IMG/VR virus record: IMGVR_UViG_3300027375_000001
DNA length: 64,000 nt
DNA from: a virus
Lineage: Duplodnaviria > Heunggongvirae > Uroviricota > Caudoviricetes
Direction: 5' to 3' (one strand)
Shown here: positions 986 to 45,437 of the stretch, in pieces
Position numbering within the stretch: position 1 is the first letter of the stretch
Layout of the letters: each line of letters opens with the position of its first letter
Notes under the pieces: model-generated
Told to the model about the DNA's origin: nothing
Database searches by the model: none
Seen by the model: the letters and a program-made list of their open reading frames with translations, nothing else
Position numbers and translations under genes: made by a program

Positions 986-3900
986 ATGTTTGTAGAAGTT
1001 TCGACATTAACTGCTTGGCCAAATGAATCGTTCAGAGTAACGCATTCAGCACTATCGACTACTGGTTCGGGCCCCATTTATTCAATTGCGGGATATACGC
1101 CTCTTACGATTGCGATTAATATTGACGGAATACACAATTCCGCATCTTTAAATGCAGTAATTGTGCCGCGACTTACATATACAACAGGTGCAACAGTCGA
1201 AGCTGTTATTACAGAATTGGCACAGTCAACACTATCTGGGGTGCCGTCGTTTACAATCAAATCAACAACAAGCGGGCTTTATTTGCCGTTTAACGATCAT
1301 TCGACTTTTACTAGTAGAATATTTAATAAATCGATATTTACATTTTCAGGAACAGAAGGGCAGCAACAAGATCAGTTGGCATCTATGGCACTAACGGCAG
1401 GGTCTGCATATTACATTATACCATCGCATTTAACATATACAGACAATAGGGAACCATCAGCAATTATTGCATCGGGTCGTCTCGATTTATCTGCGAGATT
1501 AAGAAATTGGGAATATGACTTATTTACAAGTAGCACTTTAGAAACAGGCCAAGCAAATACATCGCCATATAATTTTGCATTTTTGAATTATGCAGTTTCG
1601 CCTGCATCTTATACACCAATTACAACGAATCAAATCAGTGCGTTAAGTGCTATTATCAACACACCAAAAGTATATCGCCATGTTGATGTAAATGTAGCAA
1701 CCACAGTAGACGGTGCGTCGTCTTTCTCGAATAACTTATTATCAGTAGCAGGTGCGTCACAATCACTAGGCGAAGAATTGCTGCCTGGTAGCATTGTTCT
1801 AGAATTTTCATACGACAGCCCTCTCTATAAAGATAGTGAGTATACGTTCGATGAAATACCTGCAACATATGGATATAGTTCGGGATATCGCGAAACATTG
1901 CTAAAAGAATTGTCATCCGTTACAGTCCCTGTTATCAGCTCTGGAACTGCATTTGTGCGGGACATTCCTATGACGGGAGCTAATCCAGTCTCTGGTAACC
2001 TTGTAGGGAGGGACCCAATTTTCAATGAATATTTTGTTAACAGCGCAACAAGTGTTATTAATTATCAAACTGGTGCGTTTGCTCTTTTCTTAAACACGGG
2101 ATATAAACTTACAGGAAATGCGCTGTTGCGTGGATTTTACGATAACAAGTATGACGATTTTGCTGGCTATCCTACGTATCAAGTAATTGGCCAATCTCCT
2201 AACGATCATGAATTGAGCCTGATTGATAAAAGTGTACGAACTGTAGGCAATAATGTATTTGCAAGATACGATGTTAGCGTATATAATTTGTCATCGATTG
2301 TAGACAGAAACGACTACCCAACATATCCATCAACAATCACATCGATTAAGGCGTATAATTACGCATCATCGATACAAATTGGTTTGAATGCATTAACTTC
2401 ATTTAATGCCGTTTCGTCGATTTCATTCAGCTCGACAAATACGCCACTGTGGCTATTCACATACACAAGTACAATAACTTCAAATACCAATACATCAAAA
2501 GTCAACGGGCTTCAAATGGTGTTTAACACCCTAAGTGCTAGAACAGCTGTGACAAGCAATTCTGCTTTTATTACACCACATATAGTTAGCAATTACGGCA
2601 CTACAATACTACCATTCGCTTCAAGCGATGCATATTATGGCTACTTGCAATTCAATTGCTTGGGTGCGGTTACTAAAGTAGACAATAGAACTCAAACACC
2701 GACTCTATCTGTATATAAAATTGAATCAAACGGGCAATTAACACCATATGAAGTGTCTATGAATGTGTATGACATAACATATCCATACGAACTAAGAAGA
2801 TCTGCAAACCAAACATATCAAGTCGAAACTAGTGCGATTTCAGCTCAAACTGCATTCTTGTCAGGAGATCTGTCAATGTCATTAAGAGATGTTGCATTGT
2901 TCTATGAAACAGATGCATCTGATTTATACGATGATAATAAAATTGCATTACAATTGTACGGATTAAATACCGCAATTAAAACATCTATATTTGATCAATC
3001 TATATCATTTATTAATGGCGGTGCTAAAGTATTCATTAATCTCATACAGCAAACAATAAAAGAATTGGCTGGAGTATCGAGATCGAGCATATCCCTGGAT
3101 GATTTCGATACTGAAATATTCTACAAGCTCACCACAACAGGCAATTATTTCAAAAATGTACAGACCACGTTTAATGAAGAGTGTCGTGCATATATCTTGC
3201 AGTCGACGTCGAGTAGTACTGCGAATGAATTTAAGACTCCAATTGAAAGTCTGTGTGCGGAACTGAGCCCCGTTCTCTCATCTCTAGCAGCTGCAGGGTC
3301 TACTGGAAATGATACTCTCAGCTTTGTATTGACAAATGATTTATTCAGTATTGGCAAATTAATCGGAAGCACAAGTATTACTGCAGAGGAATATAACGTT
3401 ATCATAGATTTGTTGACCAAGAGCTTTGTCTTTGCAGCCTGGCCTGCCGCATATGATGTTGCTTCGTCATTAACATTAAGTAATCCTGCATATTTGGGTA
3501 CCAATTTGAATATTGTTAAATTGATATTCAGTCTTGGTCTTGAGACTGTATTTGATTTGTATGTCAAGGCATTTAAAGACACACTGCGCCGCGGTGCCAT
3601 AACACAAACGAAATATGACGAAATTCTTAAATACTACGCCGATCAAAACTACGCTAGATTCAATTATGAGATATCGCTAATCAAAACTGCGATTGATTAT
3701 CCAACGCTAATCAAAGGGACGTTGAATCCAAATTATAGTAGCACAAATTACATATCGATTGCGTATTATCTTGCAACTGCAGAAAAAGAACTTGGCACAT
3801 TGTTTGAGTATGTATATGCATTTAACACCAATGCGAATGAGACTGTATTTAATAACTTTTTCCGCAATTTTAACCTGATCGATAATAAAGTCGGTATGCT

Positions 3901-6900
3901 GAATATTCGTTATTCGACAGGCAATACAATTTACGACAAAACCATAGGCGCGACTATTGAGCCATATGACGGCAGAATTTTAACACTCAACCCACAAACA
4001 CATCGATTCACCTCCGCGCTTGTCCCTCTATCATCTAAATTCTGCATCATCACACCACCAGATTCGCCAGTAGAAGTTGATTATGAATTGAAGATGTACT
4101 CACAAGTTATTGGATGCCAATATGATGATATCACCACACCAATCAAAGAATCAAAAACATATATCTATAAATCACCTAAATTAGGCAGACAGCTACAATA
4201 TAGAGCGGATCCGTTTACTGTGTATCCAACAGCAGCATATAATTCAATGGTGTTGAATTTTTATCATACAACAGATGATGATGCTACGGACTCTGTCAGA
4301 ATTAAAGCATTACCTGCGATCGAAGATATGCTTGCATCCAGTAGTGCGAGCGCGTGCTCTATTATTTGGAATGTTCAATTCTTAGATATTGACGGAACGT
4401 ATGCAACAACGAAATTTATACCAATAACCGCAGCAGCAGGCACATCAAATGTAGTGAATATGTCTGCGATGCCATATGTAAGTTTCCAAACATTACCTCT
4501 ATACACTAATGTTGTAGAGTATGCGCTCGAGCCTACAGAAATACCAAATACATTCACCAGAACACCAATTGTAAAAACAATTGCATCGCATAGCAAAACA
4601 CAAGCAACATATGCTAATGAAATTATAATTGATAAAATTGGAGTTAATCCAATAACTGTCAGTGTTTCTGTTACAGGAGCTTCCTTGTCAAACTATGGAG
4701 TTACTAATAATATCTTGACAGGGCAAATGATATATTACCCGGATTTAGGTCAAGACAACACAACAAATCTATTAACACCTCAATACAGTTACAGCAGTAC
4801 TGTTGTTAGCAGACTTAGTGTTGTATCATATGATAGTGATATTGATAATAGTCTTCTATTAAGAAACTACTTCATCAAAAACAATAGAATCTATAATCCG
4901 CCAGTATACGAGAATACCACATTTAATGTCGACAGCATCCGAGGTGTTTCGCTTTTATTTAAATGTGACAATAACGGAAATAATGAGCAAGAAATTCCTT
5001 TGGGTGTTGACAATAGAAACACGGCCTATTACAAAGTCAAAACATTGATGCCTAAAACTCTCAATGTAGTTGCACCAGAAAAAGATCGACTTACTATTCA
5101 AACATTCCACACCCCAGCATGTATTGCACCAACGCAAGTAATACAATTGCCAGTTAATTATTTCCCAAGTCAAGATATATTCTATTCTAAATTTAATATT
5201 GCAATCGCAGGTACTGCCGGATCTGCATTCTATATTGGCAATATTGATACAATTAATACGCTTGTCGTATTGAGCTCAATAACACAACCATTTACAGCAG
5301 AATTAACTCCGTTGACTGTACCACAAGTCGAACATGGATGGATATCAACATCTGCATTATCTACTACATACTCAGTCGCATCTGCGACGCAAAAATTGGT
5401 ATTTACATCCTCTACACTATCTGGATTATCCGCCGGCATTGGTACGTTTAATTTATCATCAAAATTTACATATCAAAATGGAGAGTATGCTATTCTGAAG
5501 TCAAAACCACTCTATGTATATGTATCACCACAAGCATCTGTCAATGAGCTCAGTGCAAAGGTGTGGACGGTTAATACATTTACCAACCAAGGACCGTCAG
5601 CAGTCAACACTCTAAACTCAATAACAGTTAATACACAATTAACAACCGTTGGAAATGGCCATACAGAAACACTTGTGTTAAGCTCGTTCGGAACACGATA
5701 TAAAACATATGCATGGACCATTGGAAACGAAAAGGAATATGTAACCAATTCACCAATTGCATCAGCCACAATCAAAGGAACTGCGGGTACATTATCTGCT
5801 ATATCTGTCAAGGGGTATTATCTACAGCTAGATGTAGTCCCTTCATTAACTGCTCTTACATCGAGAGCGGATTATGATGATAATAAAACTGCATATGTCA
5901 ATGTTAAAAATGCAATTAACTTACTACAAGATCGCAATAATGTAATTTATACAGCAAACTCTAGCGTCACGTCTGATTATTTCAAGCCATTGCAATTTAT
6001 CGATTTGGCAACGCCTGTGATATCAGCAGAGCCTGCAGATGTATATTTTTATTCGGATTCAATTAGTAGTTTATATGATGCAGCTGTATTTACTTCAAAT
6101 AATAAAGGCGAATATGTTGTTGGGGGTACTACTACCTCATATGTAAACATTCGTAGTCTGGATACACAACAATCAATAACATATGGACCGATTGAGTATA
6201 GCTTAGTCTCTGGATTTAACAATAACACCATTACAATTCCTGATAATATCATCACAGATCCAGACTCATACAACTGTGCCGTCTTGGCTATCACATCTAC
6301 AGATACAATAGTAACTAATGCGTACAATTCTGTAGAAATTGGTAAAACAACAACATCTACAAGAGTAGACACAATTACGGCGATTAAGATACCAACATTC
6401 AATCTATTCTGGGATGAAGATTATTATGCTATTGGGTCTGCATTGACAATCAAAAATTATTACAAAAATACAAACTGTGGTGGTGCTGATTATGGATTGG
6501 GCTCGATATCAATAACATTTAATGGCCAGACACAAGTATATCCAGCATCAACTGAAACGTTTGCGTTTAACAACCTTAATGACATTGGTGTATATTCTAT
6601 CTCCGTATCTGCGAATACATACGGGCTCCTATCATCAATTCAAACGACAATTGAATCGAAATATGATAGAGCTATCAATGTAGTTAATGCATTTGACACG
6701 TTTGACAAAAATGCACGAACATACAACGAACAATTAATATTCCCTTATAGTTTGGATCAAATCTATGTAGCACCAAACGAGATTGCCAATGCTAATAATA
6801 TTAATAGTTCACTCAAGAAATTGCTTGCTAATTTTGATTATTTGATCAATAAATCAAAACTTAATGATACCAAGTTGCCAGTATTGTTTAATAAATGGTT

Positions 6901-8458
6901 AGGAGCGGAGAATAGCAAAGGCCATCGTTGGAATGATGTATCCGAATCAGATTGGGTTAATGTTTTCCCAGAATTCGACGCTACTGAATTTCATGACGTA
7001 CAAGATGCCAAGATATACAATGATAGATTAATTGTAATTGATCGGAATACAGATAATACAATCACGGATAGTATTAAAATATATGATTTGGATCGACTTT
7101 CGAGAAAATTAAACGATACTAATCTCGTCGGAGAAAAAGATTACGTAGGGAAGCTAGACTCCATTGCTATTAATGACGATGGAGAAATATACATAACAGA
7201 CACCGCGAATCATTGCGTATATGTCTACAGCATCGAATATAGTACTGGAACGTTTACATTTTTAAACAAAATCGGTGGTTTGGGCAATGCTCATCGCCCA
7301 TATCGATTTAACACCCCGACTGATATCCATTATAATCTAGGCAAGATATACGTGATTGACAAGAATAATGATGTCATTAAAGTTTATAATGATAAGATGC
7401 AATACTTCTATAACATTTCTCACGGGGAATGGGTAATGAAGAATAATTTAGTATCCATCACTACAGATACTGCAGCGAATGTATATGTATTAACAGCAGA
7501 TGGCCAGATATACACATTCAATAACACAGGCGAATATGTTAGCACAATATCAGGCATCGCCAATCCTTTTGCAGGCACTCCTGTTAAAATACATGCTAAT
7601 AATATTGATGATGGTATAATTTATATCGTATATAATACACACATATCCAAGATTACGTCTCAGGGGTATTATCTCGGATATTTTATGCCTTTATATACGC
7701 CATATGTAACTCAACTCAATAGCATCTGTCAGTATGGTAGAGGCGTTTATATTATCGACACCCGATCAATCTATAAAAATACAGATTTTGTTTCAATCAA
7801 GAGCATTATAAATGATATTGAAGGTGCACTATGGAAAGCTGATGATATTTTGATCGAAGAACAAGATTTGATTCAAGACTGGGTATATAATGTCGTATTT
7901 AACAGAATCAAAGATAATTTCGAATTGCTCGCCAAAAACATACATTCCAAATATGTGAGAAGCATCGATCTTGCTGGTAATATATCTATTGATATGGAAC
8001 CGATGTTGACAGCAGAACTACCGCAATTCGATTTCAGCCAATGTTTCATTGGACAAAATGAGCTTGTATTTACAGACGTTATCAATCGGGTAATTAAGCA
8101 TCTGTATGCAAATCTTGATAAACTAAGAGTATCTCTTGACACAATCATTGGATCTGATATGTGTAAAAATAGCTGGTGCTGGTCTTGGGCATCGATGGGA
8201 TCTTATGATCCAGTTAAAAAGAATTGTATCGTAAATCCAATCTCATTTATTGAATTGAGATCAGATAGTCCTGGTATTGGTGGTAGAACATGGGAACAGA
8301 TGTCATCTGTTGGTAGTGGTTGTTGCGAAGTGGTAACACTTAGCGGCACACGCATTCCAGAAATACATCAAGGTTATATGGCACTTTCTCCGAATGGGTC
8401 TGTTCTTTCCTTGGGTGGTAATTCTAGTATTTTGTCACTTTATTCTTTGTCAAGCTAA
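986..8458 (+). CDS. giant 2490-aa S/T/N/Y-rich structural protein (putative tail fibre or adhesin)
   Basis: Single uninterrupted 7.4-kb ORF with extreme Ser/Thr/Asn/Tyr/Ile content and no enzymatic motifs. Internal opposite-strand ORFs are short and look spurious. Confidence 0.5.
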   Translation: MFVEVSTLTAWPNESFRVTHSALSTTGSGPIYSIAGYTPLTIAINIDGIHNSASLNAVIVPRLTYTTGATVEAVITELAQSTLSGVPSFTIKSTTSGLYLPFNDHSTFTSRIFNKSIFTFSGTEGQQQDQLASMALTAGSAYYIIPSHLTYTDNREPSAIIASGRLDLSARLRNWEYDLFTSSTLETGQANTSPYNFAFLNYAVSPASYTPITTNQISALSAIINTPKVYRHVDVNVATTVDGASSFSNNLLSVAGASQSLGEELLPGSIVLEFSYDSPLYKDSEYTFDEIPATYGYSSGYRETLLKELSSVTVPVISSGTAFVRDIPMTGANPVSGNLVGRDPIFNEYFVNSATSVINYQTGAFALFLNTGYKLTGNALLRGFYDNKYDDFAGYPTYQVIGQSPNDHELSLIDKSVRTVGNNVFARYDVSVYNLSSIVDRNDYPTYPSTITSIKAYNYASSIQIGLNALTSFNAVSSISFSSTNTPLWLFTYTSTITSNTNTSKVNGLQMVFNTLSARTAVTSNSAFITPHIVSNYGTTILPFASSDAYYGYLQFNCLGAVTKVDNRTQTPTLSVYKIESNGQLTPYEVSMNVYDITYPYELRRSANQTYQVETSAISAQTAFLSGDLSMSLRDVALFYETDASDLYDDNKIALQLYGLNTAIKTSIFDQSISFINGGAKVFINLIQQTIKELAGVSRSSISLDDFDTEIFYKLTTTGNYFKNVQTTFNEECRAYILQSTSSSTANEFKTPIESLCAELSPVLSSLAAAGSTGNDTLSFVLTNDLFSIGKLIGSTSITAEEYNVIIDLLTKSFVFAAWPAAYDVASSLTLSNPAYLGTNLNIVKLIFSLGLETVFDLYVKAFKDTLRRGAITQTKYDEILKYYADQNYARFNYEISLIKTAIDYPTLIKGTLNPNYSSTNYISIAYYLATAEKELGTLFEYVYAFNTNANETVFNNFFRNFNLIDNKVGMLNIRYSTGNTIYDKTIGATIEPYDGRILTLNPQTHRFTSALVPLSSKFCIITPPDSPVEVDYELKMYSQVIGCQYDDITTPIKESKTYIYKSPKLGRQLQYRADPFTVYPTAAYNSMVLNFYHTTDDDATDSVRIKALPAIEDMLASSSASACSIIWNVQFLDIDGTYATTKFIPITAAAGTSNVVNMSAMPYVSFQTLPLYTNVVEYALEPTEIPNTFTRTPIVKTIASHSKTQATYANEIIIDKIGVNPITVSVSVTGASLSNYGVTNNILTGQMIYYPDLGQDNTTNLLTPQYSYSSTVVSRLSVVSYDSDIDNSLLLRNYFIKNNRIYNPPVYENTTFNVDSIRGVSLLFKCDNNGNNEQEIPLGVDNRNTAYYKVKTLMPKTLNVVAPEKDRLTIQTFHTPACIAPTQVIQLPVNYFPSQDIFYSKFNIAIAGTAGSAFYIGNIDTINTLVVLSSITQPFTAELTPLTVPQVEHGWISTSALSTTYSVASATQKLVFTSSTLSGLSAGIGTFNLSSKFTYQNGEYAILKSKPLYVYVSPQASVNELSAKVWTVNTFTNQGPSAVNTLNSITVNTQLTTVGNGHTETLVLSSFGTRYKTYAWTIGNEKEYVTNSPIASATIKGTAGTLSAISVKGYYLQLDVVPSLTALTSRADYDDNKTAYVNVKNAINLLQDRNNVIYTANSSVTSDYFKPLQFIDLATPVISAEPADVYFYSDSISSLYDAAVFTSNNKGEYVVGGTTTSYVNIRSLDTQQSITYGPIEYSLVSGFNNNTITIPDNIITDPDSYNCAVLAITSTDTIVTNAYNSVEIGKTTTSTRVDTITAIKIPTFNLFWDEDYYAIGSALTIKNYYKNTNCGGADYGLGSISITFNGQTQVYPASTETFAFNNLNDIGVYSISVSANTYGLLSSIQTTIESKYDRAINVVNAFDTFDKNARTYNEQLIFPYSLDQIYVAPNEIANANNINSSLKKLLANFDYLINKSKLNDTKLPVLFNKWLGAENSKGHRWNDVSESDWVNVFPEFDATEFHDVQDAKIYNDRLIVIDRNTDNTITDSIKIYDLDRLSRKLNDTNLVGEKDYVGKLDSIAINDDGEIYITDTANHCVYVYSIEYSTGTFTFLNKIGGLGNAHRPYRFNTPTDIHYNLGKIYVIDKNNDVIKVYNDKMQYFYNISHGEWVMKNNLVSITTDTAANVYVLTADGQIYTFNNTGEYVSTISGIANPFAGTPVKIHANNIDDGIIYIVYNTHISKITSQGYYLGYFMPLYTPYVTQLNSICQYGRGVYIIDTRSIYKNTDFVSIKSIINDIEGALWKADDILIEEQDLIQDWVYNVVFNRIKDNFELLAKNIHSKYVRSIDLAGNISIDMEPMLTAELPQFDFSQCFIGQNELVFTDVINRVIKHLYANLDKLRVSLDTIIGSDMCKNSWCWSWASMGSYDPVKKNCIVNPISFIELRSDSPGIGGRTWEQMSSVGSGCCEVVTLSGTRIPEIHQGYMALSPNGSVLSLGGNSSILSLYSLSS

Positions 8459-17619: not shown

Positions 17620-18096
17620 ATGGATAATAACTTATACGCCCTTTTCAATAAAACAAATAAAAAATTTGTATGCTTTTCTATTGGTAGTGAAAATTTGCCA
17701 CCCGGCTCATTATATCGAAAGATTGAAATAGAGGGAGGCTTTAATCTAGACGCATACGAATGGATAGGAGATTATGATGATGGCCAATTTGTAGACAAAA
17801 GCCAACAGCCGTTTAAGATATCGGAAGTCGATTTGCAAAAGCAAATGTATGATGTCTTTTTCCGAAAATTCGAACCAGTATACGTATTGATGAATATTAT
17901 CAACACCTTACTGATCCAATACGAAAAAGACCAATTGCCTTGGGTGGATGAGCCAATGGAAGAAATGTTGCAATTTTACCGAAAGCTCCTTATTAGAACA
18001 GAAACGGATGCTAAGTTTTACCAGAATTCAAAATTCCATACATATGTAACTAAGCAGCAGATAGAGGATGACTTCCAGTCTCGTTTGGAGAACTGA
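17620..18096 (+). CDS. hypothetical protein
   Basis: 158-aa ORF tightly packed in a plus-strand block. Confidence 0.3.
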   Translation: MDNNLYALFNKTNKKFVCFSIGSENLPPGSLYRKIEIEGGFNLDAYEWIGDYDDGQFVDKSQQPFKISEVDLQKQMYDVFFRKFEPVYVLMNIINTLLIQYEKDQLPWVDEPMEEMLQFYRKLLIRTETDAKFYQNSKFHTYVTKQQIEDDFQSRLEN

Positions 18097-18551
18097 TGAA
18101 AAAATACGCACAATTCAAACAAGGAGTATATAAACCACTTAACAGGGCGAAGTGCACAAACTCTGGTAATATTATCTACCGTAGTTTTCTGGAAAGAAAA
18201 TTTATGATCTGGTGTGATAAGAACGCCAATGTCATTGAATGGGGCTCTGAGAATGTGATAGTCCCGTACGTTTCTCCTATTGATAATGCAGTTCATCGTT
18301 ATATCGTCGATATGTACGTTAAAGTCCGCGAACGCGATAAGATCTGCAAATACCTCATTGAAATCAAGCCTTATAAGCAAACCATTCAGCCTACTATTAC
18401 TAAAAAGAAAAAAGAATCAACTATCATTCATGAGCATGCAACATGGGTGGTAAACAATGCCAAATGGGAAGCAGCAAAAGGCTTTGCAAACAAGTACGGC
18501 ATGAAATTTATTATCATCACAGATAAAGATTTGGATAATACGTGTAAGTAA
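18096..18551 (+). CDS. hypothetical protein
   Basis: 151-aa ORF with an ATGA stop/start overlap with the previous gene. Confidence 0.3.
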   Translation: MKKYAQFKQGVYKPLNRAKCTNSGNIIYRSFLERKFMIWCDKNANVIEWGSENVIVPYVSPIDNAVHRYIVDMYVKVRERDKICKYLIEIKPYKQTIQPTITKKKKESTIIHEHATWVVNNAKWEAAKGFANKYGMKFIIITDKDLDNTCK

Positions 18552-18557
18552 TTTTAC

Positions 18558-19295
18558 ATGTCCAAGAAAAAGCGACTTCGGCACCCCGAAGAAACTGATG
18601 AGCTTGCCAGAGTATATTTTGGCAGGGAAATTGACGGTCTAAATTTTAAAATCTATTGCAAATTTGATTTCAACGAAACACACAAAAGATTTTTACAGCT
18701 ATTAGACGATGTAGACACAAAAATGGTCATGGTAGATGGCCCCGCTGGATCAGGTAAAACATATCTATCTGTTCTTGCAGGACTAAAGCACCTATCACAG
18801 AGACACTTCGAAAAAATTGTATATATTCGAAGCATAGCAGAATCCGCAGCGAAAAGTATTGGATCATTGCCTGGTGAATTGGATGAAAAATTCAAACCAT
18901 GGTCAATTCCGTTAATGGAAAAATTATCAGAGCTAATTGATCGCACTACTATCGCAAATTTAATGGAAGACAATAGAATCGAGTGTGTTCCTGTTAACTT
19001 TGTAAGAGGCATGACATTCCACGATAGCTTTGTCATTATTGACGAAGCTCAGAATCTTGACTTCAAAGAATTGACCAGTTGTTTAACACGATTTGGTAAC
19101 AACACTCAATATGTTGTTATTGGAGATGCCAAGCAAGCCGACATCGGCGAGCGTTCTGGATTTACACGTGCTACAAAGGCTTTTGCTGATGTTGAATGTA
19201 TCGAAAACGGTATTTATTCGTTCAAATTTACTGAGGATGATATTGTTCGTTCTGCAATCCTTAAACTCATAGCACGCAAGCTAGGAGCTGTATAA
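18558..19295 (+). CDS. phoH: PhoH-like ATPase
   Basis: Walker A (DGPAGSGKT) and Walker B (FVIIDEAQN) with overall PhoH architecture. 245 aa. Confidence 0.8.
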   Translation: MSKKKRLRHPEETDELARVYFGREIDGLNFKIYCKFDFNETHKRFLQLLDDVDTKMVMVDGPAGSGKTYLSVLAGLKHLSQRHFEKIVYIRSIAESAAKSIGSLPGELDEKFKPWSIPLMEKLSELIDRTTIANLMEDNRIECVPVNFVRGMTFHDSFVIIDEAQNLDFKELTSCLTRFGNNTQYVVIGDAKQADIGERSGFTRATKAFADVECIENGIYSFKFTEDDIVRSAILKLIARKLGAV

Positions 19296-19804: not shown

Positions 19805-20011
19805 TCATTTTAAAGTATTGCGGTCTAAAGAAAGATCGTAATTTTTATCACACAGCAATGAATTTTTTAAGTCATCTCCATTAATTTCGAATTCTTTTTT
19901 ATTATCCTCAACGAAAACTAACATATTGCCTTTTTCTTTTTTGCGAACGTAGCTATATATTGTCTTTTTATTGTCTTTTCGGATTGAAAGATAGTATTTT
20001 GGAGATTTCAT
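19805..20011 (-). CDS. hypothetical small protein
   Basis: 68-aa ORF between nrdB and the neighbouring gene. Confidence 0.2.
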   Translation of the reverse strand: MKSPKYYLSIRKDNKKTIYSYVRKKEKGNMLVFVEDNKKEFEINGDDLKNSLLCDKNYDLSLDRNTLK

Positions 20012-21078
20012 TACAGGGCGATTTTCTTTAAACGGGACTTATCAATAGTACTATTCCGACTACCGATTTGGTATGTAGTAAGATTTTGTTCCTGTGGAGC
20101 TGATTGTGATAGAGTTGGGTCGAGATATTCGACTAACCAAGAACCGATTGGATTTTTCTTGCTAGCAAAAATCTTTTCATAGCCCAAACTCGAAAGTCGG
20201 TTATTCGCCAACCATTCGATATATTGGTGTACATTCTCCTCATTGAATCCAATCAAACTGCCCTTTGAGAACAAATAGCTAGCCCAATCCTTTTCACATT
20301 GAACTGCCGTTTTATACATCTCATAAACCAAGTCAGTATTCTTTTCTACTAGGTCTTGGAAACCTTCATCTGGATTGGTCTTCCAAAGCTTGATGATGTT
20401 TTGCGTAATTGCAACGTGAAGCGATTCATCTTTATTGATCAGGCGAATAATTTTCGCCATTTGAGGTGCCTTTCCTTGTTTGCCAAACCAGAAGGAGAAC
20501 AGGAACGATACATGAAAATTAAGTCCTTCTGCAATCTGCGTTGACAAAACAGTCTTAAAGATTTGCTCTTGAACATTTCTATCCGAATCTTTGGTGCCTA
20601 AAAGATCATCAAATGCTTTAGTTACTTCGACAGATCTCTTATTGATTTCTTCATTGACTACGATTGAGTCAAAAAATTCCTCTGGCTTCTTGGTAAGGCC
20701 TTTAAGCGCATGCGTATAAGATTCACTATGAAGAACTTCACAGAATTGCCAATACGAACAGGCTGCTTCCAATTCAGGTAGCGTAATGTATTTGGTAATT
20801 TCATTAATGCCTCTGCTCAGCACTGAGTCTGTTGCCGTTTGCCACATTAGATTATTCTCAAAGATCCATTTCTCTGTAGCACTCATTGTGTCAATTTTCG
20901 ACGCTTCGCCAGAAAAATCAATCTCCTCTGGATTCCAGAATGCAGACTTTTGATCTTGATATAAATCATAAAATTTCTTATACTTGAAAACATCGAACCG
21001 TTGTAGGTTGAGTTCAGGTCCTAAGAACATTTTACGTTCATGTGGTGGAATATTAGATTTGTTGTATACGCTTTTCAT
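20011..21078 (-). CDS. nrdB: ribonucleotide reductase class I small subunit
   Basis: Ferritin-like di-iron/tyrosyl radical protein with conserved E..H motifs. The start was set at Met 21078 so that ATGA overlaps the nrdA C-fragment stop. Confidence 0.75.
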   Translation of the reverse strand: MKSVYNKSNIPPHERKMFLGPELNLQRFDVFKYKKFYDLYQDQKSAFWNPEEIDFSGEASKIDTMSATEKWIFENNLMWQTATDSVLSRGINEITKYITLPELEAACSYWQFCEVLHSESYTHALKGLTKKPEEFFDSIVVNEEINKRSVEVTKAFDDLLGTKDSDRNVQEQIFKTVLSTQIAEGLNFHVSFLFSFWFGKQGKAPQMAKIIRLINKDESLHVAITQNIIKLWKTNPDEGFQDLVEKNTDLVYEMYKTAVQCEKDWASYLFSKGSLIGFNEENVHQYIEWLANNRLSSLGYEKIFASKKNPIGSWLVEYLDPTLSQSAPQEQNLTTYQIGSRNSTIDKSRLKKIAL

Positions 21079-21668
21079 AGTGAGCAAAATCCGGTAGCAC
21101 ATCCAGAATCGTCCGAAGACTCGGCTTTTTCTGATGTATCATTTTCTGAGACTTCTTCCGCAGCAAGACTTGTGTCTGCTGAGACTATTTGTTTGTTCTT
21201 CGCATAATAAAGAGTCTTCAGACCGTATTTGTATGATAAAAGAATATCATACGCAACGTCTGTAGTTTCAAGTTTATTATTCTCATAATTGCCGTAGTTG
21301 TAGTAATGATTGGTACTAGCGGCCATGCACAGCCATTTCGTAATAGCTGCAGCACATTTGATAATTCCTTCATTTGTACAATCATACGCCGATTTATAAT
21401 ACTTACCGTATTTCTTTGCACCTGGTGCAATCCATGCCGCACTTCCTTGACGATCATCTTTGAATTGGAAGAGACTGACAATTGGTTCCATACCATTAGT
21501 CGAATTCTGGGTTAAAGAACTATTGTGCGATATAATCTTGCTTTTTCCCGAGTCGATTACATAAGAATGGACATTTGGAGATTCTACGTCGTACGTTGGA
21601 CAAATTTCGTTAGATTTTGTTATTCTGTTGATTTTCATATTCGTTATATATTTTATACAATTCGTCAA
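21075..21668 (-). CDS. nrdA: NrdA C-terminal fragment: split-intein C-half followed by the C-extein
   Basis: The N-terminal ~49 aa end in VHSYVIDSGKSKIISHN|S (intein blocks F/G, terminal HN, +1 Ser). The extein then resumes SLTQNSTNGMEP, aligning with E. coli NrdA ...SQISNATNGIEP. The C-terminal tail DDSGCATGFCSL resembles the NrdA redox-active CxxxxC tail. Confidence 0.7.
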   Translation of the reverse strand: MTNCIKYITNMKINRITKSNEICPTYDVESPNVHSYVIDSGKSKIISHNSSLTQNSTNGMEPIVSLFQFKDDRQGSAAWIAPGAKKYGKYYKSAYDCTNEGIIKCAAAITKWLCMAASTNHYYNYGNYENNKLETTDVAYDILLSYKYGLKTLYYAKNKQIVSADTSLAAEEVSENDTSEKAESSDDSGCATGFCSL

Positions 21669-22698
21669 TACTGATGCTTGACTTGCTTTGTTTTGAACAA
21701 TTTTTTGATCTCTCTAAAATTTCTAAATTGACAACAGACCCAATCACTCTCGGTGATATGTCGTTTATATATCCTTGCTTCTGTGAATATCGATGGTCTA
21801 CATGATATTCCTTGCTTCTTTTTTCAAAAAGTACTTCATTATCATTGATTGATTGGGATGTCCAAAATCCTACTTCCATTTTGTATTTCTTCCAGTCATC
21901 TAATTTGTCAAGAGTTAGCCACACACCTTTTTTTTCCATTGTCTCTCTTAACTTATTATTAATCTCTTGATGATGTGCAAGCCATTCATCACCAAATATG
22001 CGTTGGAGATTGGTTGGGTTTCTTGTGTTGTTGAATATACGTTTGGCATTTATTTTTTCCAAAATAATATCAATATCCTCATCCGTATACCCTTTGTCGT
22101 AATATACAGAGCTCAGTAGCCCACACTTTTGAAAATAGTATTCTCGTGCTAATTTACTAGCTTCCTCTTCGGTGCAATCTTGTCTTGACAAATAATACTC
22201 TTTGCACCATTTGGATTTGCGGCGCATGTAATTACTATATTCACATTTCCATGTATGTGGATATTTTTGTTTATACTCATTCAATATATTAACTGAGGAT
22301 TTCTTGCTTGACAACTGAAATTTTTTAAATAATGCTTCGCCTTTTTCTTTGCCGTGTCTCGCACAAAACCCTTCTAAAGATGTAGTCTTTTGAGATTTTA
22401 AATTGGCTATTTTTAATTCCGCTTCAATTAATGTAATACCGAATTTGAGAGATGCTGTGAGTGGATCATACATAACCGGAATTTTGTTTTGAAGACAATA
22501 TTTGACTCGGGTATTCCATTTGTAAAATCCATCTTTTGACCATTTGTCTTTTATCGCCATTGCGAAAACTTTTATAGTTTTGCCTTGAAATCCCTCGCCA
22601 TATAATTCATCTACATCTTTTTTGGCATTTATATTCGATGAAAATGCATTTAAAAAATCGATAATACTACTCTTTAGATTAGAACGTTTAGTTGCCAT
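21610..22698 (-). CDS. free-standing HNH homing endonuclease inserted between the split-intein halves
   Basis: 362-aa ORF in a third frame between the two nrdA fragments. HNH-like motif YHVDHRYSQKQGYINDISPRVIGSVVNLEIL near the C-terminus. Confidence 0.5.
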   Translation of the reverse strand: MATKRSNLKSSIIDFLNAFSSNINAKKDVDELYGEGFQGKTIKVFAMAIKDKWSKDGFYKWNTRVKYCLQNKIPVMYDPLTASLKFGITLIEAELKIANLKSQKTTSLEGFCARHGKEKGEALFKKFQLSSKKSSVNILNEYKQKYPHTWKCEYSNYMRRKSKWCKEYYLSRQDCTEEEASKLAREYYFQKCGLLSSVYYDKGYTDEDIDIILEKINAKRIFNNTRNPTNLQRIFGDEWLAHHQEINNKLRETMEKKGVWLTLDKLDDWKKYKMEVGFWTSQSINDNEVLFEKRSKEYHVDHRYSQKQGYINDISPRVIGSVVNLEILERSKNCSKQSKSSISIDELYKIYNEYENQQNNKI

Positions 22699-22747
22699 AA
22701 TGCGTATAGATTTTACTTATCGCATTATGGCAACTAAATTGGGTAGA

Positions 22748-24955
22748 TTATTCGATTTCCATAATTTCTTCGTCAACTGAAAGTTCTTCCACTGTCTTCC
22801 ACCCATCCTTGGTCAGGAATCTATGATCTTTAGTCGCTTTGATAATATCACCATTTTCAAGCTCAATATCAAATACTTCGCTAGTGCCATTGTAATAAAT
22901 TCTATTCGTCTCAACCGGCCCGTCTTTTGTTTCGAGTGTAATAGTTTTATCAGACTCATGCCAGCCTTTCATATCATGCATTTCAATATTCTTCCACGAA
23001 AACCCAAGTTGTTCGCAAATTTCATGGAAGTTCATAGGTTTGCCATCAACAAAGACTTTGGTATCCCATTTTAGGCACTTTTCGCACGGCATCTGTGAGG
23101 AGACCGTCATGTTTCTCATGCCGTCACGACGAATATTTGACATCAGGGCATCCCAGTCCATTGAAGGCTTTCTGGTAATAAATTCATCCACATCCTTCTT
23201 GTATAGATCAAGCTTGGAATATCCTTGAGCGTATTTGGATTTAGACCAGTCAGGCGCTGGTCCCTTTTCTTTGGCAAGCAACCAAGATGCCTCCATTAGG
23301 TAATATTGCTGGCGTTCCATGAACTCATCGATAGCATTAGGTGCTTCTGGTGAATCATGATTCAAGCCTTGTGTCGCTAACCATCCTGCTAGATTAGTAA
23401 TGCCAATACCAAGCGATCTTTTATTCTTAGTGAATCTTTCGGCAGCAGGTGCAAAGTATAATTGGCGATCTACCATATCATCTAGCATGCGTACGGCCTG
23501 ATGGCATACCTCACGGTGTTCATTTGCCGATCTGATATTGAGCATATTGACCGCCGCAAGCAAACACGTACCAATTTCACCATTAGGATCATCTAGGGAT
23601 TGACATGGTTTCGTTGGTTGTAGGATTTCTACACAAAGATTCGTCATGTTGACACGCTCAGTCCATGGAGAAAAATCATTAGCAAGATCGATATTAAGAA
23701 TATAAATTCTGTTCGTTTCGATTCTTTCTTTGATCAAAGAATCAAAGATATCATCTGCAGGAATAGACTTTTTAAATTTAATCTCTGGGTTTGCTTCTGC
23801 CTTGAGATAAAGCTCGTCAAATTCAGGCATACCAAACGAATCAAATAATTCAGGAACCTCATGATTCGAGAATAGAGTAATGTTTCCGCCTTCATTCCAG
23901 CGTTCATAGAAGATTTTAGAAATACCAATTACATAGTCAAGATGTCTTACACGATTATATTCGGTACCACCAACATTTCGCAATTGGAGAATAGATTCAA
24001 TCTCCCAATGGAAAATAGGTGCATTGGCTGTACCGGCACCACGTCTAGCACCACCTTGTTGCTGAGACTTGATCGCATCTTGGAACACTTTGAGATATGG
24101 AATAACCCCACCATGAATAGTCTCGCCATTCTTAACAGGAGACCCAACACCACGAATCTTGCCGAAATCTAATCCAATGCCATATCCATAACTGGTAGCC
24201 CTCGCCATAATATGCGCAGACGAAAAGATCGAGTCTGCCGTATCATCGACTTGAATCAAGCAACAAGATGCACCTGTCTTAACGGGGGTTCTCCATCTTG
24301 TAAGCATTGGTGTTGGTATATTCAAACGACGCTCAGATACATCGTCATAGAATTGGCGGATATATTGAATCCGTTTCTTGGATTCATAATTTGCATAGTG
24401 AGACATACCAATACACATGAACGCAAATTGAGGAGTCTCATATACTTTATGATTGACTCGATCTTGAACTAAGCCAGTGCGCACGAGATGCTTCATGCCA
24501 GCAAAATCGAACATAGTCTCGTCTCTTTCGTGGTCAATATAACTGCCAATCTTATTGATCTCTTCTTCACTGAACTTGTTAATTAGCTCATCTGTATAGA
24601 CTCCGAGGTCTACACATTTCTTGATGTGGTCATATAGTCTTGGTGGTGTATTACCACCCCACACTTCTTTACGAAGGCCATATACCAAAAGCCGTGCGGC
24701 TACAATTGAATAATTTGGATTTTCTAAAGAAATAAGATCTTCTGCTGACTTAACCAATGAGTCTTGAATTTCCGCTGAGGTGATGCCATCGTAGAAGTTA
24801 ATCTTGGCATTCATAAGAATATCAATTGCTGATGCTCCTGCTACGCCTTTTGTTGCATGGTAGACCATTCTATTGGCCTTTTCTGCATCGAAAATTTCTG
24901 TATCTCCTGTCCGTTTTTTGACTAAAATGTCTTTCATGTAATGTTTATCGAGCAT
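22748..24955 (-). CDS. nrdA: NrdA N-terminal fragment: ATP-cone plus catalytic region plus split-intein N-half
   Basis: ATP-cone (VKKRTGDTEIFD). The RNR alpha core runs up to ...RNMTVSSQMPCEK, matching E. coli RNSTLSALMPSET. Then come intein block A (CLKWDTKVFVDGKPMNFHEI) and block B (IKATKDHRFLTKDG) before the stop. Confidence 0.8.
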   Translation of the reverse strand: MLDKHYMKDILVKKRTGDTEIFDAEKANRMVYHATKGVAGASAIDILMNAKINFYDGITSAEIQDSLVKSAEDLISLENPNYSIVAARLLVYGLRKEVWGGNTPPRLYDHIKKCVDLGVYTDELINKFSEEEINKIGSYIDHERDETMFDFAGMKHLVRTGLVQDRVNHKVYETPQFAFMCIGMSHYANYESKKRIQYIRQFYDDVSERRLNIPTPMLTRWRTPVKTGASCCLIQVDDTADSIFSSAHIMARATSYGYGIGLDFGKIRGVGSPVKNGETIHGGVIPYLKVFQDAIKSQQQGGARRGAGTANAPIFHWEIESILQLRNVGGTEYNRVRHLDYVIGISKIFYERWNEGGNITLFSNHEVPELFDSFGMPEFDELYLKAEANPEIKFKKSIPADDIFDSLIKERIETNRIYILNIDLANDFSPWTERVNMTNLCVEILQPTKPCQSLDDPNGEIGTCLLAAVNMLNIRSANEHREVCHQAVRMLDDMVDRQLYFAPAAERFTKNKRSLGIGITNLAGWLATQGLNHDSPEAPNAIDEFMERQQYYLMEASWLLAKEKGPAPDWSKSKYAQGYSKLDLYKKDVDEFITRKPSMDWDALMSNIRRDGMRNMTVSSQMPCEKCLKWDTKVFVDGKPMNFHEICEQLGFSWKNIEMHDMKGWHESDKTITLETKDGPVETNRIYYNGTSEVFDIELENGDIIKATKDHRFLTKDGWKTVEELSVDEEIMEIE

Positions 24956-28738: not shown

Positions 28739-28788
28739 TTTATTATCAATACTTATTTAAGGTATTGATAACTATTTGGCTCGCCATA

Positions 28789-43831: not shown

Positions 43832-44800
43832 TTGATTGCAGCACAACCCACATCCATATTAAAGAGTAATCAAACACCAAACACAAACAAACAATATATG
43901 AAGCTTAGTTATCAAAAGTCCAGCATGGTTCGTGTTTCTGAAATCAAAATTCCTGATGTGTTCTTCCGTCGGATGCACACAGGCATTGAAGTGGTTGATA
44001 AACTTTTTGGTGGTGAGGGAATCCTTCCGGGCATGGTATTCACTCTATCCGCCGCCGCAGGAGTTGGTAAGACTACGCTGATGCTTCAAATCTGCGAGGC
44101 TCTCGCCGATCAAGGATATGAAGCGGGATACGTGACTGGTGAAGAAACTACCACGATGCTCGCGTACAGCTGCCGCCGGTTGGGTTTGAAATCCGTTCAA
44201 GTATGTCACGAGACGGATGTGGAAGAAATCTGCAAGATGATGAAGCAAATGGACTTTCTGATCGTCGACAGCTTTGCTACACTTCAATTCGATGATAAGC
44301 GCATGGGAGATGCGGACGCAATTAACAAAATCGTCTCCGCAGCCAAAGAGAGCGAATGTGCGGTTGGTATCATCCTCCATCAAACCAAAAACGGAAACTT
44401 CAAAGGAAGCACTGTGATTACTCATGCGGTTGATTGTAATATCGCAATCAGCATCAATGATGAATCTGATGATCATCGAGACATCCAAACCTCGAAAAAC
44501 CGTTATGGTACCCCGTATAGTGGTGTGTTGAGAATCAGTCCAAGCGGATACGATTTGTCTGCGCTCGCTGATATGTCTGCATTCACTACCGCGTCCGCGA
44601 AATCGAAAAAATCACGCAAGGAAGACCAGATCCTTTCTATGAAGGAACCGCCGAACATTACGATCGATCGCGTGGTTCAAGAACTGAATGTCAGCGAAGC
44701 ATATGCTCGGCAGATGCTTTACAAGCTCAATAAGGAAAACAAACTCGTGAAGATCGGTTCGGGTTCGGATGCTGTTTGGAAATTCCCAATCAACAAATAA
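43832..44800 (+). CDS. RecA-superfamily ATPase, RadA/Sms-like, with a C-terminal winged-helix region
   Basis: HTGIEVVDKLFGGEGILPGMVFTLSAAAGVGKTTLMLQ matches the RadA T-G-I-x-ELD..LGGG...G + Walker A block. Confidence 0.5.
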   Translation: MIAAQPTSILKSNQTPNTNKQYMKLSYQKSSMVRVSEIKIPDVFFRRMHTGIEVVDKLFGGEGILPGMVFTLSAAAGVGKTTLMLQICEALADQGYEAGYVTGEETTTMLAYSCRRLGLKSVQVCHETDVEEICKMMKQMDFLIVDSFATLQFDDKRMGDADAINKIVSAAKESECAVGIILHQTKNGNFKGSTVITHAVDCNIAISINDESDDHRDIQTSKNRYGTPYSGVLRISPSGYDLSALADMSAFTTASAKSKKSRKEDQILSMKEPPNITIDRVVQELNVSEAYARQMLYKLNKENKLVKIGSGSDAVWKFPINK

Positions 44801-44837: not shown

Positions 44838-45437
44838 ATGATCTCAAAGAGACCAATTTTAAAGCTCAATGCTAACTATCAACCACTAGAACCGGCTAGT
44901 TGGTCTGATATCATGGTTGGTATTTTCTCCAAATCTTTTGTCCCACTGGATATTAGCTACACCCAGAATGAGGATGGGTCGTACGATACTACGCAAATAG
45001 AATCGTTCATCGCAATCAAGGACTGGAAGCAATGGATCAAGCTACCTATTCGTCCTTGTGATGATTATGTACAAACATCCAAAGGACCAGTGCGGTTGCC
45101 CTCCATTGTGATCTGTAGCAGATTCGACCGAATGGTCATTAAGAAGGGCAAATTTCCTACTAAGCAAAACATTTTTCGGAGAGATAACTATACTTGTGCA
45201 TACACCGGAAAGAAACTACAAAAGAGTGAACTCAGTGTTGATCATATCATTCCTTCTAGCAGAGGTGGTACCAACACTTGGGATAATTTGGTCTGCTGTG
45301 ATCGCGAAGTGAATAACGCTAAAGCAGATAGGACTCCGTCTGAATGTGGGTTGAAGTTGCTATGGAAACCCACCAAACCAAAAGATGGTGTAGTATTTGA
45401 TATTTTGCGTGATGATTGGCAGATGTTCGTAAAATAA
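44838..45437 (+). CDS. HNH endonuclease
   Basis: SVDHIIPSSRGGTNTWDNLVCCDREVNNAKADR is a classic HNH (H-N-N) motif. Confidence 0.7.
   Translation: MISKRPILKLNANYQPLEPASWSDIMVGIFSKSFVPLDISYTQNEDGSYDTTQIESFIAIKDWKQWIKLPIRPCDDYVQTSKGPVRLPSIVICSRFDRMVIKKGKFPTKQNIFRRDNYTCAYTGKKLQKSELSVDHIIPSSRGGTNTWDNLVCCDREVNNAKADRTPSECGLKLLWKPTKPKDGVVFDILRDDWQMFVK

Follow-up and report, generated by a model that had tools for sequence, protein, structure and literature searches.

A putative fractured nrdA gene in an uncharacterised phage lineage, with a split intein and a free-standing, HNH-like candidate endonuclease gene between its halves

Organisation of the nrdA-nrdB locus

The ribonucleotide reductase (RNR) locus described here lies on a 64,000-nt stretch of DNA from a tailed phage (Caudoviricetes; IMG/VR record IMGVR_UViG_3300027375_000001), which is referred to as the window and on which all positions are given. 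Its subject is nrdA, encoded in two pieces that carry the halves of an intein and are separated by a third gene. Four tightly packed open reading frames (ORFs), taken from a program-made list, follow one another on the minus strand at 24955..22748, 22698..21610, 21668..21075 and 21102..20011, the first three occupying three different reading frames. They correspond to an N-terminal nrdA fragment ending in intein-N, a middle ORF that is a putative homing-endonuclease gene (HEG), a C-terminal nrdA fragment starting with intein-C, and nrdB (Table 1). The middle ORF begins after a 49-nt gap, and the 29-nt and 4-nt overlaps further downstream suggest coupled expression.

Table 1. Features of the nrdA-nrdB locus (positions on the window; aa, amino acids)
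Feature	Position	Strand	Remarks
nrdA-N fragment	24955..22748	-	735 aa: 626-aa extein and 109-aa intein-N
nrdA N-extein, 626 aa	23078..24955	-	ATP-cone, all-alpha domain, barrel with NLCVE (thiyl Cys) and two redox Cys equivalents
Intein-N, 109 aa (CLKWDTK...EEIMEIE), with TAA stop	22748..23077	-	Blocks A and B (Cys1, TKDH); net charge -12
RNA hairpin, 18-bp perfect stem (predicted)	22687..22738	-	3' arm holds the endonuclease ATG (22698..22696); loop motif ATAAGTA
Putative free-standing HEG, 362 aa	21610..22698	-	Helical N-terminal region and C-terminal nuclease-like domain
Putative beta-beta-alpha-metal (HNH-like) core, residues ~295-340	21679..21816	-	YHVDH...G...NLEILERSKNCSK
Intein-C, 39 aa (MKINRITK...IISHN)	21522..21638	-	Blocks F and G; 29-nt overlap with the endonuclease ORF
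nrdA C-extein, 148 aa from Ser+1, with stop	21075..21521	-	SSLTQNSTNGMEP loop, LYY radical-transfer tyrosines, C-terminal GCATGFC
nrdB, 355 aa from the ATG of CTATGA (21078)	20011..21078	-	RNR small chain (PF00268), E 3.7e-51; 4-nt overlap with the nrdA-C stop

The two fragments together cover a class Ia NrdA. On the N-fragment, Pfam recognises the ATP-cone (PF03477), the all-alpha domain (PF00317) and positions 1-390 of the 523-position barrel model (PF02867), which is resumed on the C-fragment at positions 458-522. The E. coli-type NrdA model of NCBIfam (NF006578, 761 positions) is likewise shared out, with positions 3-624 on the N-fragment and 620-759 on the C-fragment. All the features of the class are present: these models identify the ATP-cone and barrel, and direct reading finds NLCVE on the N-fragment, and LYY and GCATGFC (within the tail GCATGFCSL) on the C-fragment. 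NLCVE, LYY and the C-terminal Cys pair are assigned by the E. coli NrdA numbering of the literature.

A preliminary description of this DNA had placed nrdA in two ORFs with a middle ORF in a further frame, had read the N-fragment as an ATP-cone and RNR alpha core running into intein blocks A and B and a stop, and had noted an intein C-terminal block ending in ISHN/S before the extein and its GCATGFCSL tail (here and below, a slash marks the splice or insertion point). All three ORFs lie where it put them, the peptides that it quoted are all found in the sequence, and the ATGA overlap that it reported between nrdA and nrdB is there. Its view that the endonuclease is not fused to the intein also holds, as the middle ORF has its own frame, start and stop and a low ratio of non-synonymous to synonymous divergence (dN/dS, 0.06). 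One point had to be corrected: the C-fragment was said to begin at 21668, from which TTG codon the ORF counts 197 aa. This start was dropped in favour of the ATG at 21638 (MKINRITK), which is kept in every relative.

The split intein and its predicted splice junction

The intein-N region is recognised by the NCBIfam model for intein N-termini (TIGR01445, residues 627-715) at 30.6 bits, above the cut-off of 24.5, and by Pfam Intein_splicing (PF14890, residues 627-735; E 1.6e-6) at 28.5 bits, under that model's cut-off of 35.8. When joined, the two halves form an intein of 148 aa that matches the Ssp DnaB mini-intein (1mi8, E 2e-9), the Npu and Ssp DnaE split inteins and a RecA mini-intein, with E-values from 2e-9 to 1e-6 against the solved DnaB/DnaE mini or split inteins. 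The intein blocks, whose absence the preliminary description had named as an outcome that would overturn it, are present. They include the residues of a class 1 intein, i.e., Cys1, the block B TKDH, the block F Asp (YDVE), the terminal His-Asn and Ser+1.

Seven versions of the intein were compared (the window, the related loci L003, L016, L009 and L020, and phages KP13-7 and WX1). C1, T-K-D-H, Y-D-V-E and S-H-N/S are conserved among them, TYDVE and SHN marking intein-C, and versions as far apart as 27% identity keep Cys1, TxxH, the block F Asp, His-Asn and a Ser/Thr nucleophile. Intein-N is acidic and the N-terminal part of intein-C basic, a complementarity that is also conserved in the seven versions; the acidic half would pair with the basic start of the other.

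The joined exteins make up a NrdA of 774 aa. No gap is needed to align the junction region with E. coli NrdA 598-759, in which MPCEK/SSLTQNSTNGMEP faces MPSET/SSQISNATNGIEP. This puts the insertion between the counterparts of T624 and S625, inside the substrate-phosphate loop. Furthermore, the predicted ligation product is identical to the junction of two uninterrupted homologues, L015 and L017 (MPCEK/SSL; ...MPCEKSSLMQNSTNG...; ...AMPCEKSSLMQNSTNG...). Both comparisons bear out the earlier claim that the junction rebuilds an E. coli-like NrdA. The conserved catalytic residues, together with the purifying selection described below, suggest that protein trans-splicing restores NrdA.

The middle ORF and its nuclease-like domain

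Library searches with the middle protein gave no family in Pfam (to E<=10, GIY-YIG and Vsr included) or NCBIfam and no nuclease family in PHROGs, where the only matches (5104 and 23051) are both of unknown function. A profile search of PDB sequences returned nothing relevant. Foldseek against the PDB found only designed helical repeats for the full-length model (E of at least 0.07) and nothing significant for the C-terminal model. With an HNH reference profile built from the window's own Pfam-positive HNH ORF (44838-45437), hhalign brought the DH, G, NL and N..K elements into register, but at E 0.53.

In the profile search for relatives, 5273 cluster representatives came within E<=1e-3, and 126 within E<=1e-30; the part found widely is the C-terminal ~110 residues. 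Within this part H302, S305, G309, N333 and K336 are invariant in 51 relatives, and D301, N324 and L325 are nearly so. The AlphaFold2 model of the whole protein has a mean predicted local distance difference test score (pLDDT) of 82.5 and a predicted template modelling score of 0.41, as expected for an elongated multi-domain protein, and its N-terminal two thirds are all-helical. For the C-terminal 113 residues (pLDDT 94), the model gives a strand (YHVDH, 298-302), two short helices, a second strand (LEILE, 325-329) and a helix (RSKNCSK, 330-336). H302, the candidate general base, and N333, with the nearly invariant D301 and N324, lie on this predicted beta-hairpin and helix, a pattern in keeping with the conserved His, Asn and final His or Asn of HNH nucleases. 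In addition, relatives fuse the same C-terminal domain to C2H2 zinc fingers or DUF7487-type repeats, a family context that fits a homing endonuclease.

Since the profile and Foldseek searches gave no significant match and the register found by hhalign came at E 0.53, the C-terminal domain is regarded as putatively HNH-like with moderate confidence rather than as a proven HNH nuclease. The label "HNH-like" in the preliminary description thus keeps the support of motif and predicted fold, while the check that it proposed, a hidden Markov model (HMM) search against HNH and homing-endonuclease families, found no match in Pfam or NCBIfam and only functionally unassigned families in PHROGs.

Two further loci carry proteins related to this discussion. 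In the T4-like coliphages IME540 (L013 3003-3686) and VR26 (L014 3126-3809), a hypothetical ORF of 227 aa lies between gp18 (tail sheath) and gp19 (tail tube), a gap typical of free-standing homing endonucleases; the C-terminus of this ORF and the nuclease-like domain of the window's middle ORF share 33-43% identity. L096 (1422-5918) has a gene for a family B DNA polymerase in three pieces, with two ORFs in between. One of these ORFs, P0008, contains seven tandem repeats of ~28 aa, which score E 1e-10 to 1e-15 apiece with an HMM built from them, and by eye its C-terminus is Vsr-like. The end of the preceding polymerase piece resembles a degenerate intein block B. When the P0008 repeat HMM was run on the middle protein, one weak unit was returned (residues 107-128, E 0.009), and no claim of tandem repeats is made for the N-terminal region.

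Purifying selection and conservation of the layout

The same layout is found in at least 20 independently assembled contigs (NCBI, JGI, Logan) that carry a 94%-identical middle protein, and again with middle proteins of 61%, 50% and 36% identity. Selection was estimated by the Nei-Gojobori method between the window and L003. The dN/dS ratio is 0.058 for the N-extein (dS 2.03), 0.047 for intein-N (dS 0.36), 0.061 for the 362 codons of the middle ORF (dS 0.45), 0.035 for intein-C (dS 0.62) and 0.075 for the C-extein (dS 1.63). Strong purifying selection acts on all five coding parts.

The start-codon hairpin

The gap region between intein-N and the middle ORF holds a predicted hairpin with a minimum free energy of -27.2 kcal/mol (z-score -7.0), a stability reached by none of 200 shuffled sequences. 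Comparable z-scores (-6 to -8) are obtained in four lineages. In L011, codon 3 of the endonuclease gene has changed from ACT to CAT and the non-coding 5' arm from AGT to ATG, which amounts to two compensatory pairs. L009 and L095 have unrelated stems at the equivalent position, that of L095 being a GC-rich stem of 17 bp that ends at the ATG (z -7.9) and holds TATAAAT in its loop. At the level of aligned sequences, these changes establish a covarying structure at the start codon.

Shine-Dalgarno-like GGA stands upstream of just 10 of 67 window ORFs, start codons being preceded by A/T-rich, G-poor sequence in which Shine-Dalgarno motifs are almost absent. In a phage essentially without such sites, a buried start codon is therefore plausible as a translational block, and the hairpin may limit or time endonuclease translation in the manner of Aeh1 mobE.

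The loops of the window, L003, L011 and L009 share the motif ATAAGTA. In the window it occurs at 22714-22720 (minus strand) and also at 28756, 30435, 39618 and 54691 (minus strand) and 54829 (plus strand), several of these copies lying 2-15 nt upstream of start codons. The motif may contribute to a promoter or to an initiation signal.

Allele series and mobility of the cassette

Viral contigs were scanned with the spliced NrdA, and four kinds of allele were recovered (L095 came from a separate look-up). The gene is uninterrupted in L015 and L017, whose empty-site DNA reads ATGCCTTGTGARAAR/TCNTCN.... A split intein with the middle ORF is present in the window, L003-L012, L018/L019 and L095, and a split intein without it in L016 (junction DNA GAAATCGAATAA/ATTATATACGAATATG). 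L020 carries a deletion scar, a 110-nt spacer in which part of the hairpin and the final 20 HEG codons (CSITKESLLTQYSNYENQEN) survive. The L016 allele, whose flanks match the window at 92-97% identity, is missing precisely the part at 22747..21663 of the window; intein-N still ends in its TAA and, after a 13-nt spacer, intein-C still starts at its separate ATG. As read from these alignments, the endonuclease gene has been both gained and lost.

Occupancy of the site is at odds with the host-gene tree: the empty L017 and the occupied L020 have 92.6% NrdA identity, while the window and L009, both occupied, have 75.7%. The window and L003 are 77%, 81% and 79% identical at the nucleotide level in the N-extein, C-extein and nrdB, as against 93% in intein-N, 92% in the spacer, 91% in the middle ORF and 90% in intein-C. 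In a 90-nt sliding comparison identity rises from ~75% to ~93% exactly at the first intein codon (23077) and falls back just after the last (21522). Synonymous divergence is likewise four to five times lower inside the element (dS 0.36-0.62) than in the exteins (dS 1.6-2.0). The discordance is reversed between the window and L011, in which the N-extein is 97% identical at the amino-acid level, intein-N 83.5% and the middle ORF 61%.

Because identity switches exactly at the intein ends, the composite intein-HEG-intein element moves as a unit, and the compared sequences document cassette-wise horizontal transfer with exact boundaries. Discordances such as those with L003 and L011 would be expected if the composite element had homed repeatedly into alleles lacking the intein. 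For Ser+1 (window 21519-21521), AGT is the codon in each of the five alleles with an intein, and TCA or TCC in the two without; in this small sample, the pattern fits a one-codon co-conversion tract.

In L020, an ORF of 281 aa (5866-6711) lies between nrdA-C and nrdB, where T4 has mobE. It matches positions 119-219 of the 220-position DUF7487 model, and its C-terminus resembles PD-(D/E)xK (D...EVK). This ORF probably encodes another free-standing endonuclease, of a different kind.

In KP13-7 (L001 719-6249) and WX1 (L002 1-4865), nrdA is found in at least four pieces, most of them annotated as hypothetical. In KP13-7 the first piece is followed by an HNH_3 ORF, where ~15 NrdA residues are unaccounted for and no Rfam intron is seen. 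Further on come a split intein at NLC/C with a GIY-YIG ORF and a split intein at T624/S625 with an HNH-like ORF.

Interpretation and alternative explanations

The explanation that best accommodates these observations, to which a probability of roughly 0.8 is given, is that of a fractured nrdA, in which a phage class Ia RNR is interrupted, within its substrate-phosphate loop, by a class 1 split intein that carries a free-standing homing-endonuclease gene where it is split. From their same-strand packing, nrdA-N, the endonuclease gene, nrdA-C and nrdB would be co-transcribed. Two NrdA polypeptides would result, whose intein halves would associate, fold as a HINT domain and splice via Cys1, Ser+1 and the terminal Asn to give the 774-aa NrdA. 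The endonuclease, by analogy with mobE of Aeromonas phage Aeh1, would normally be poorly translated with its start codon buried in the 18-bp hairpin. In mixed infections it would cut intein-free or HEG-less nrdA alleles of related phages, and repair would copy the whole intein-N/endonuclease/intein-C cassette. Later deletion of the endonuclease gene can leave a bare split intein, as alleles L016 and L020 show.

Several points weigh against this explanation. Splicing and DNA cleavage are both deduced from sequence, and the split NrdA of Aeh1 is able to work without splicing (PMC3045599). As regards expression, ATAAGTA is not enriched in the window (10 copies found, 11.5 expected), and no promoter could be demonstrated inside the hairpin; a scan for sigma-70 promoters and terminators likewise gave consensus-level matches only and no convincing internal promoter. 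Moreover, the ORFs of the KP13-7 and WX1 versions overlap and the hairpin is absent, so that hairpin control is not universal.

Two extensions, which do not exclude one another, are put forward tentatively and judged unlikely as they stand. First, the middle ORF may belong to a large unannotated homing-endonuclease family, in which an HNH-like C-terminal domain without a Pfam model is combined with interchangeable helical-repeat or zinc-finger DNA-binding modules. The family would have these modules in common with Vsr-like (DUF7487) endonucleases, and several phage genes, nrdA and DNA polymerase B among them, would be fractured by its members. Second, splicing of NrdA may be redox-gated. Every allele of the window's clade, like the very distant L095, carries at extein position -3 a Cys that forms a C-x-x-C with the catalytic Cys1 (CEKC or CESC). 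In each of the 71 other intein-free phage NrdAs that the scan recovered, this residue is Ser. According to the summary in PMC10663303 of Callahan 2011, the P. abyssi MoaA intein is kept from splicing by such a disulfide when conditions are oxidising. The Ser+1 codon and Cys -3 patterns (23078-23092 and 21519-21521; window, L003, L009, L015-L017, L020, L095) could reflect either co-conversion or a redox trap.

A different view of the middle ORF is that it encodes no active homing nuclease at all but a domesticated DNA-binding or regulatory protein, or a nuclease with a target other than nrdA, the cassette having spread by ordinary recombination. The want of a significant profile match to any nuclease family, the empty Foldseek result and the all-helical N-terminal two thirds, a region of unknown function, speak for this view. 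It is nevertheless improbable, as the place between the nrdA intein halves is conserved in phages of unrelated hosts, the boundaries of the transferred DNA fall exactly at the intein ends, and the gene is polymorphic for presence and absence within near-identical backgrounds.

Slightly less probable again is a non-covalent assembly, in which the NrdA pieces would work unligated and the intein halves would be mere affinity tails. There is a precedent in Aeh1: its HNH gene mobE divides NrdA into NrdA-a and NrdA-b, which bear tails of opposite charge and function as two unjoined chains (PMC3045599). The tails in the window are of opposite charge too. An interaction tail would not, however, need the full catalytic set that is conserved down to 27% identity. 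The intein halves are also held at dN/dS 0.035-0.047, and the split falls inside the substrate-phosphate loop.

Decay of nrdA into a pseudogene by successive insertions, as proposed for Campylobacter phage CPt10, is very improbable here. Dwivedi et al. (2013) did regard nrdA in Campylobacter phages, where it is interrupted, as a remnant or a pseudogene (PMC3653736), but in the window the exteins evolve at dN/dS 0.058 and 0.075 even at saturating dS, the catalytic motifs of NrdA are all there (NLCVE, LYY and the C-terminal CxxxxC), and nrdB is intact and translationally coupled.

Finally, two frameshift errors in a contiguous intein-endonuclease fusion would indeed give three successive frames, and the middle ORF might instead lie in an RNA-spliced group I intron, but this artefact reading, which the preliminary description itself had named as fatal to its claim, has next to no probability and is already refuted as far as sequence data allow: frames and stops are shared by the independent assemblies noted above and by versions of 50-61% identity, L016 retains its stop, spacer and separate ATG without any endonuclease gene, and an Rfam scan of the region (E<=1) found no intron family, its sole match being a chance one of a microRNA precursor to the hairpin.

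Phage background and neighbouring observations

The window comes from a large, uncharacterised phage lineage. A megablast of the locus against 50,697 phage records gave no match, no phage record exceeds 40% identity to its NrdB, and most of the large ORFs in the window, including one of 2490 aa at 986-8458 (plus strand), have no PHROG match.

Other nuclease-like genes are found elsewhere in the window. The canonical HNH ORF at 44838-45437 (plus strand; Pfam HNH_4, HNH_5 and HNH) directly follows a KaiC/RecA-like ATPase ORF (43832-44800, plus strand), and its 98%-identical relatives are labelled McrA-like. An ORF of 151 aa at 18096-18551 (plus strand), just upstream of PhoH (18558-19295), carries a TnsA-like endonuclease N-terminal domain (PF08722, E 8e-18). 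It keeps the same position in relatives (L003) and may be another free-standing nuclease.

Significance

The fractured-gene concept is itself 17 years old. The locus adds to it a candidate for the endonuclease type that Dassa et al. (2009) thought could fracture genes but had not observed. With its place in the substrate-phosphate loop, it also brings the intein sites of NrdA to two. In addition, its relatives provide an unusually complete natural series (empty site, intein with endonuclease, endonuclease deleted and deletion scar), with boundaries at the nucleotide level which show that the intein and the free-standing endonuclease gene travel together. Such joint travel supports the proposed route of free-standing endonucleases into inteins and of the origin of split inteins. 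Furthermore, the "degenerate" nrdA genes of Campylobacter and Klebsiella jumbo phages are probably functional fractured genes. For future work, naturally split inteins with Cys1 and Ser/Thr+1 are candidates for trans-splicing tools, and the putative nucleases would form a large uncharacterised family with modular DNA-binding regions.

Comparison with known systems

The nearest description is that of the fractured genes of Dassa, London, Stoddard, Schueler-Furman and Pietrokovski (2009; PMC2677866), who reported seven NrdA loci (NrdA-1 to NrdA-7), all at NLC/C, with endonucleases that were GIY-YIG or Vsr-like; HNH and LAGLIDADG enzymes were not seen fracturing genes but were deemed possible. 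Hairpins with late-promoter motifs preceded 15 of their 16 fractured-gene endonucleases. The window shows the same arrangement, with two same-strand ORFs that cover the whole of NrdA, the upstream one ending in intein-N and the downstream one starting with intein-C. As in those genes, a split intein breaks a conserved gene of DNA metabolism in a phage setting, a free-standing gene, here that of a putative endonuclease, lies between the halves, intein-N is acidic and intein-C basic, a hairpin stands at the 5' end of this middle gene, and HEG-less split versions exist (their gp41-7). It differs from their NrdA loci in its site, which is T624/S625 and not directly N-terminal to the thiyl-radical Cys, and in its nuclease, which would belong to a distinct, HNH-like and unannotated family.

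The nrdA-a/mobE/nrdA-b locus of Aeh1 (Friedrich 2007; Crona 2011, PMC3045599) is also split by a free-standing gene, there of HNH type, whose ORF overlaps the downstream nrdA piece, with a hairpin that limits endonuclease translation and oppositely charged tails. Unlike the window, it has no intein; its pieces stay separate with unprocessed tails and are split between the equivalents of C439 and C462. The window, split at T624/S625 with intein halves at its ends, does not belong to this type, and none of the 15 phage records matched in a tblastn search with its endonuclease is from an Aeromonas phage or T4.

The intein itself belongs by sequence to the HINT fold family of the Npu/Ssp DnaE and Ssp DnaB inteins. 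Its block B (ATKDHRFLT) is close to ATKDHKFMT, and it is split at the canonical endonuclease-insertion point into fragments of similar size (109 and 39 aa) with the same charge pattern. The DnaE halves, in contrast, are encoded far apart without an endonuclease gene, and their +1 residue is Cys, where the window has Ser.

Campylobacter phages (CP21, WX1 and F379, with CPt10 in the literature) and the Klebsiella jumbo phages KP13-7 and phiKp_21 have a homologous intein at the same NrdA site or one residue off, and a homologous middle ORF (28-42% identity) that overlaps both neighbours. The homologues in KP13-7 and WX1 are full-length and sit between homologous intein-N and intein-C, and CP21 and F379 carry homologues too. 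Unlike the window, these records have their ORFs annotated as hypothetical, further splits at NLC/C (where the KP13-7 ORF does match GIY-YIG) and no start-codon hairpin. An Rfam search of the KP13-7 and WX1 loci found nothing at the gathering threshold. In the literature the Campylobacter phage nrdA has been read as degenerating or as a pseudogene (Dwivedi et al., 2013, PMC3653736).

Among non-canonical intein endonucleases, a survey from 2025 names Vsr-like, antisense LAGLIDADG, in-frame HNH and endonuclease VII-like enzymes; it has no entry for a free-standing HNH-type gene in a split intein. The present combination appears undescribed in the searchable literature, the coverage of which is incomplete. 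The sites and nucleases of Dassa et al. (2009), this survey and the differences from Aeh1 together lead to the conclusion that the locus, as judged from its genes, is the same kind of system as the fractured genes, with a new site in NrdA and a new, putative family of homing endonucleases.

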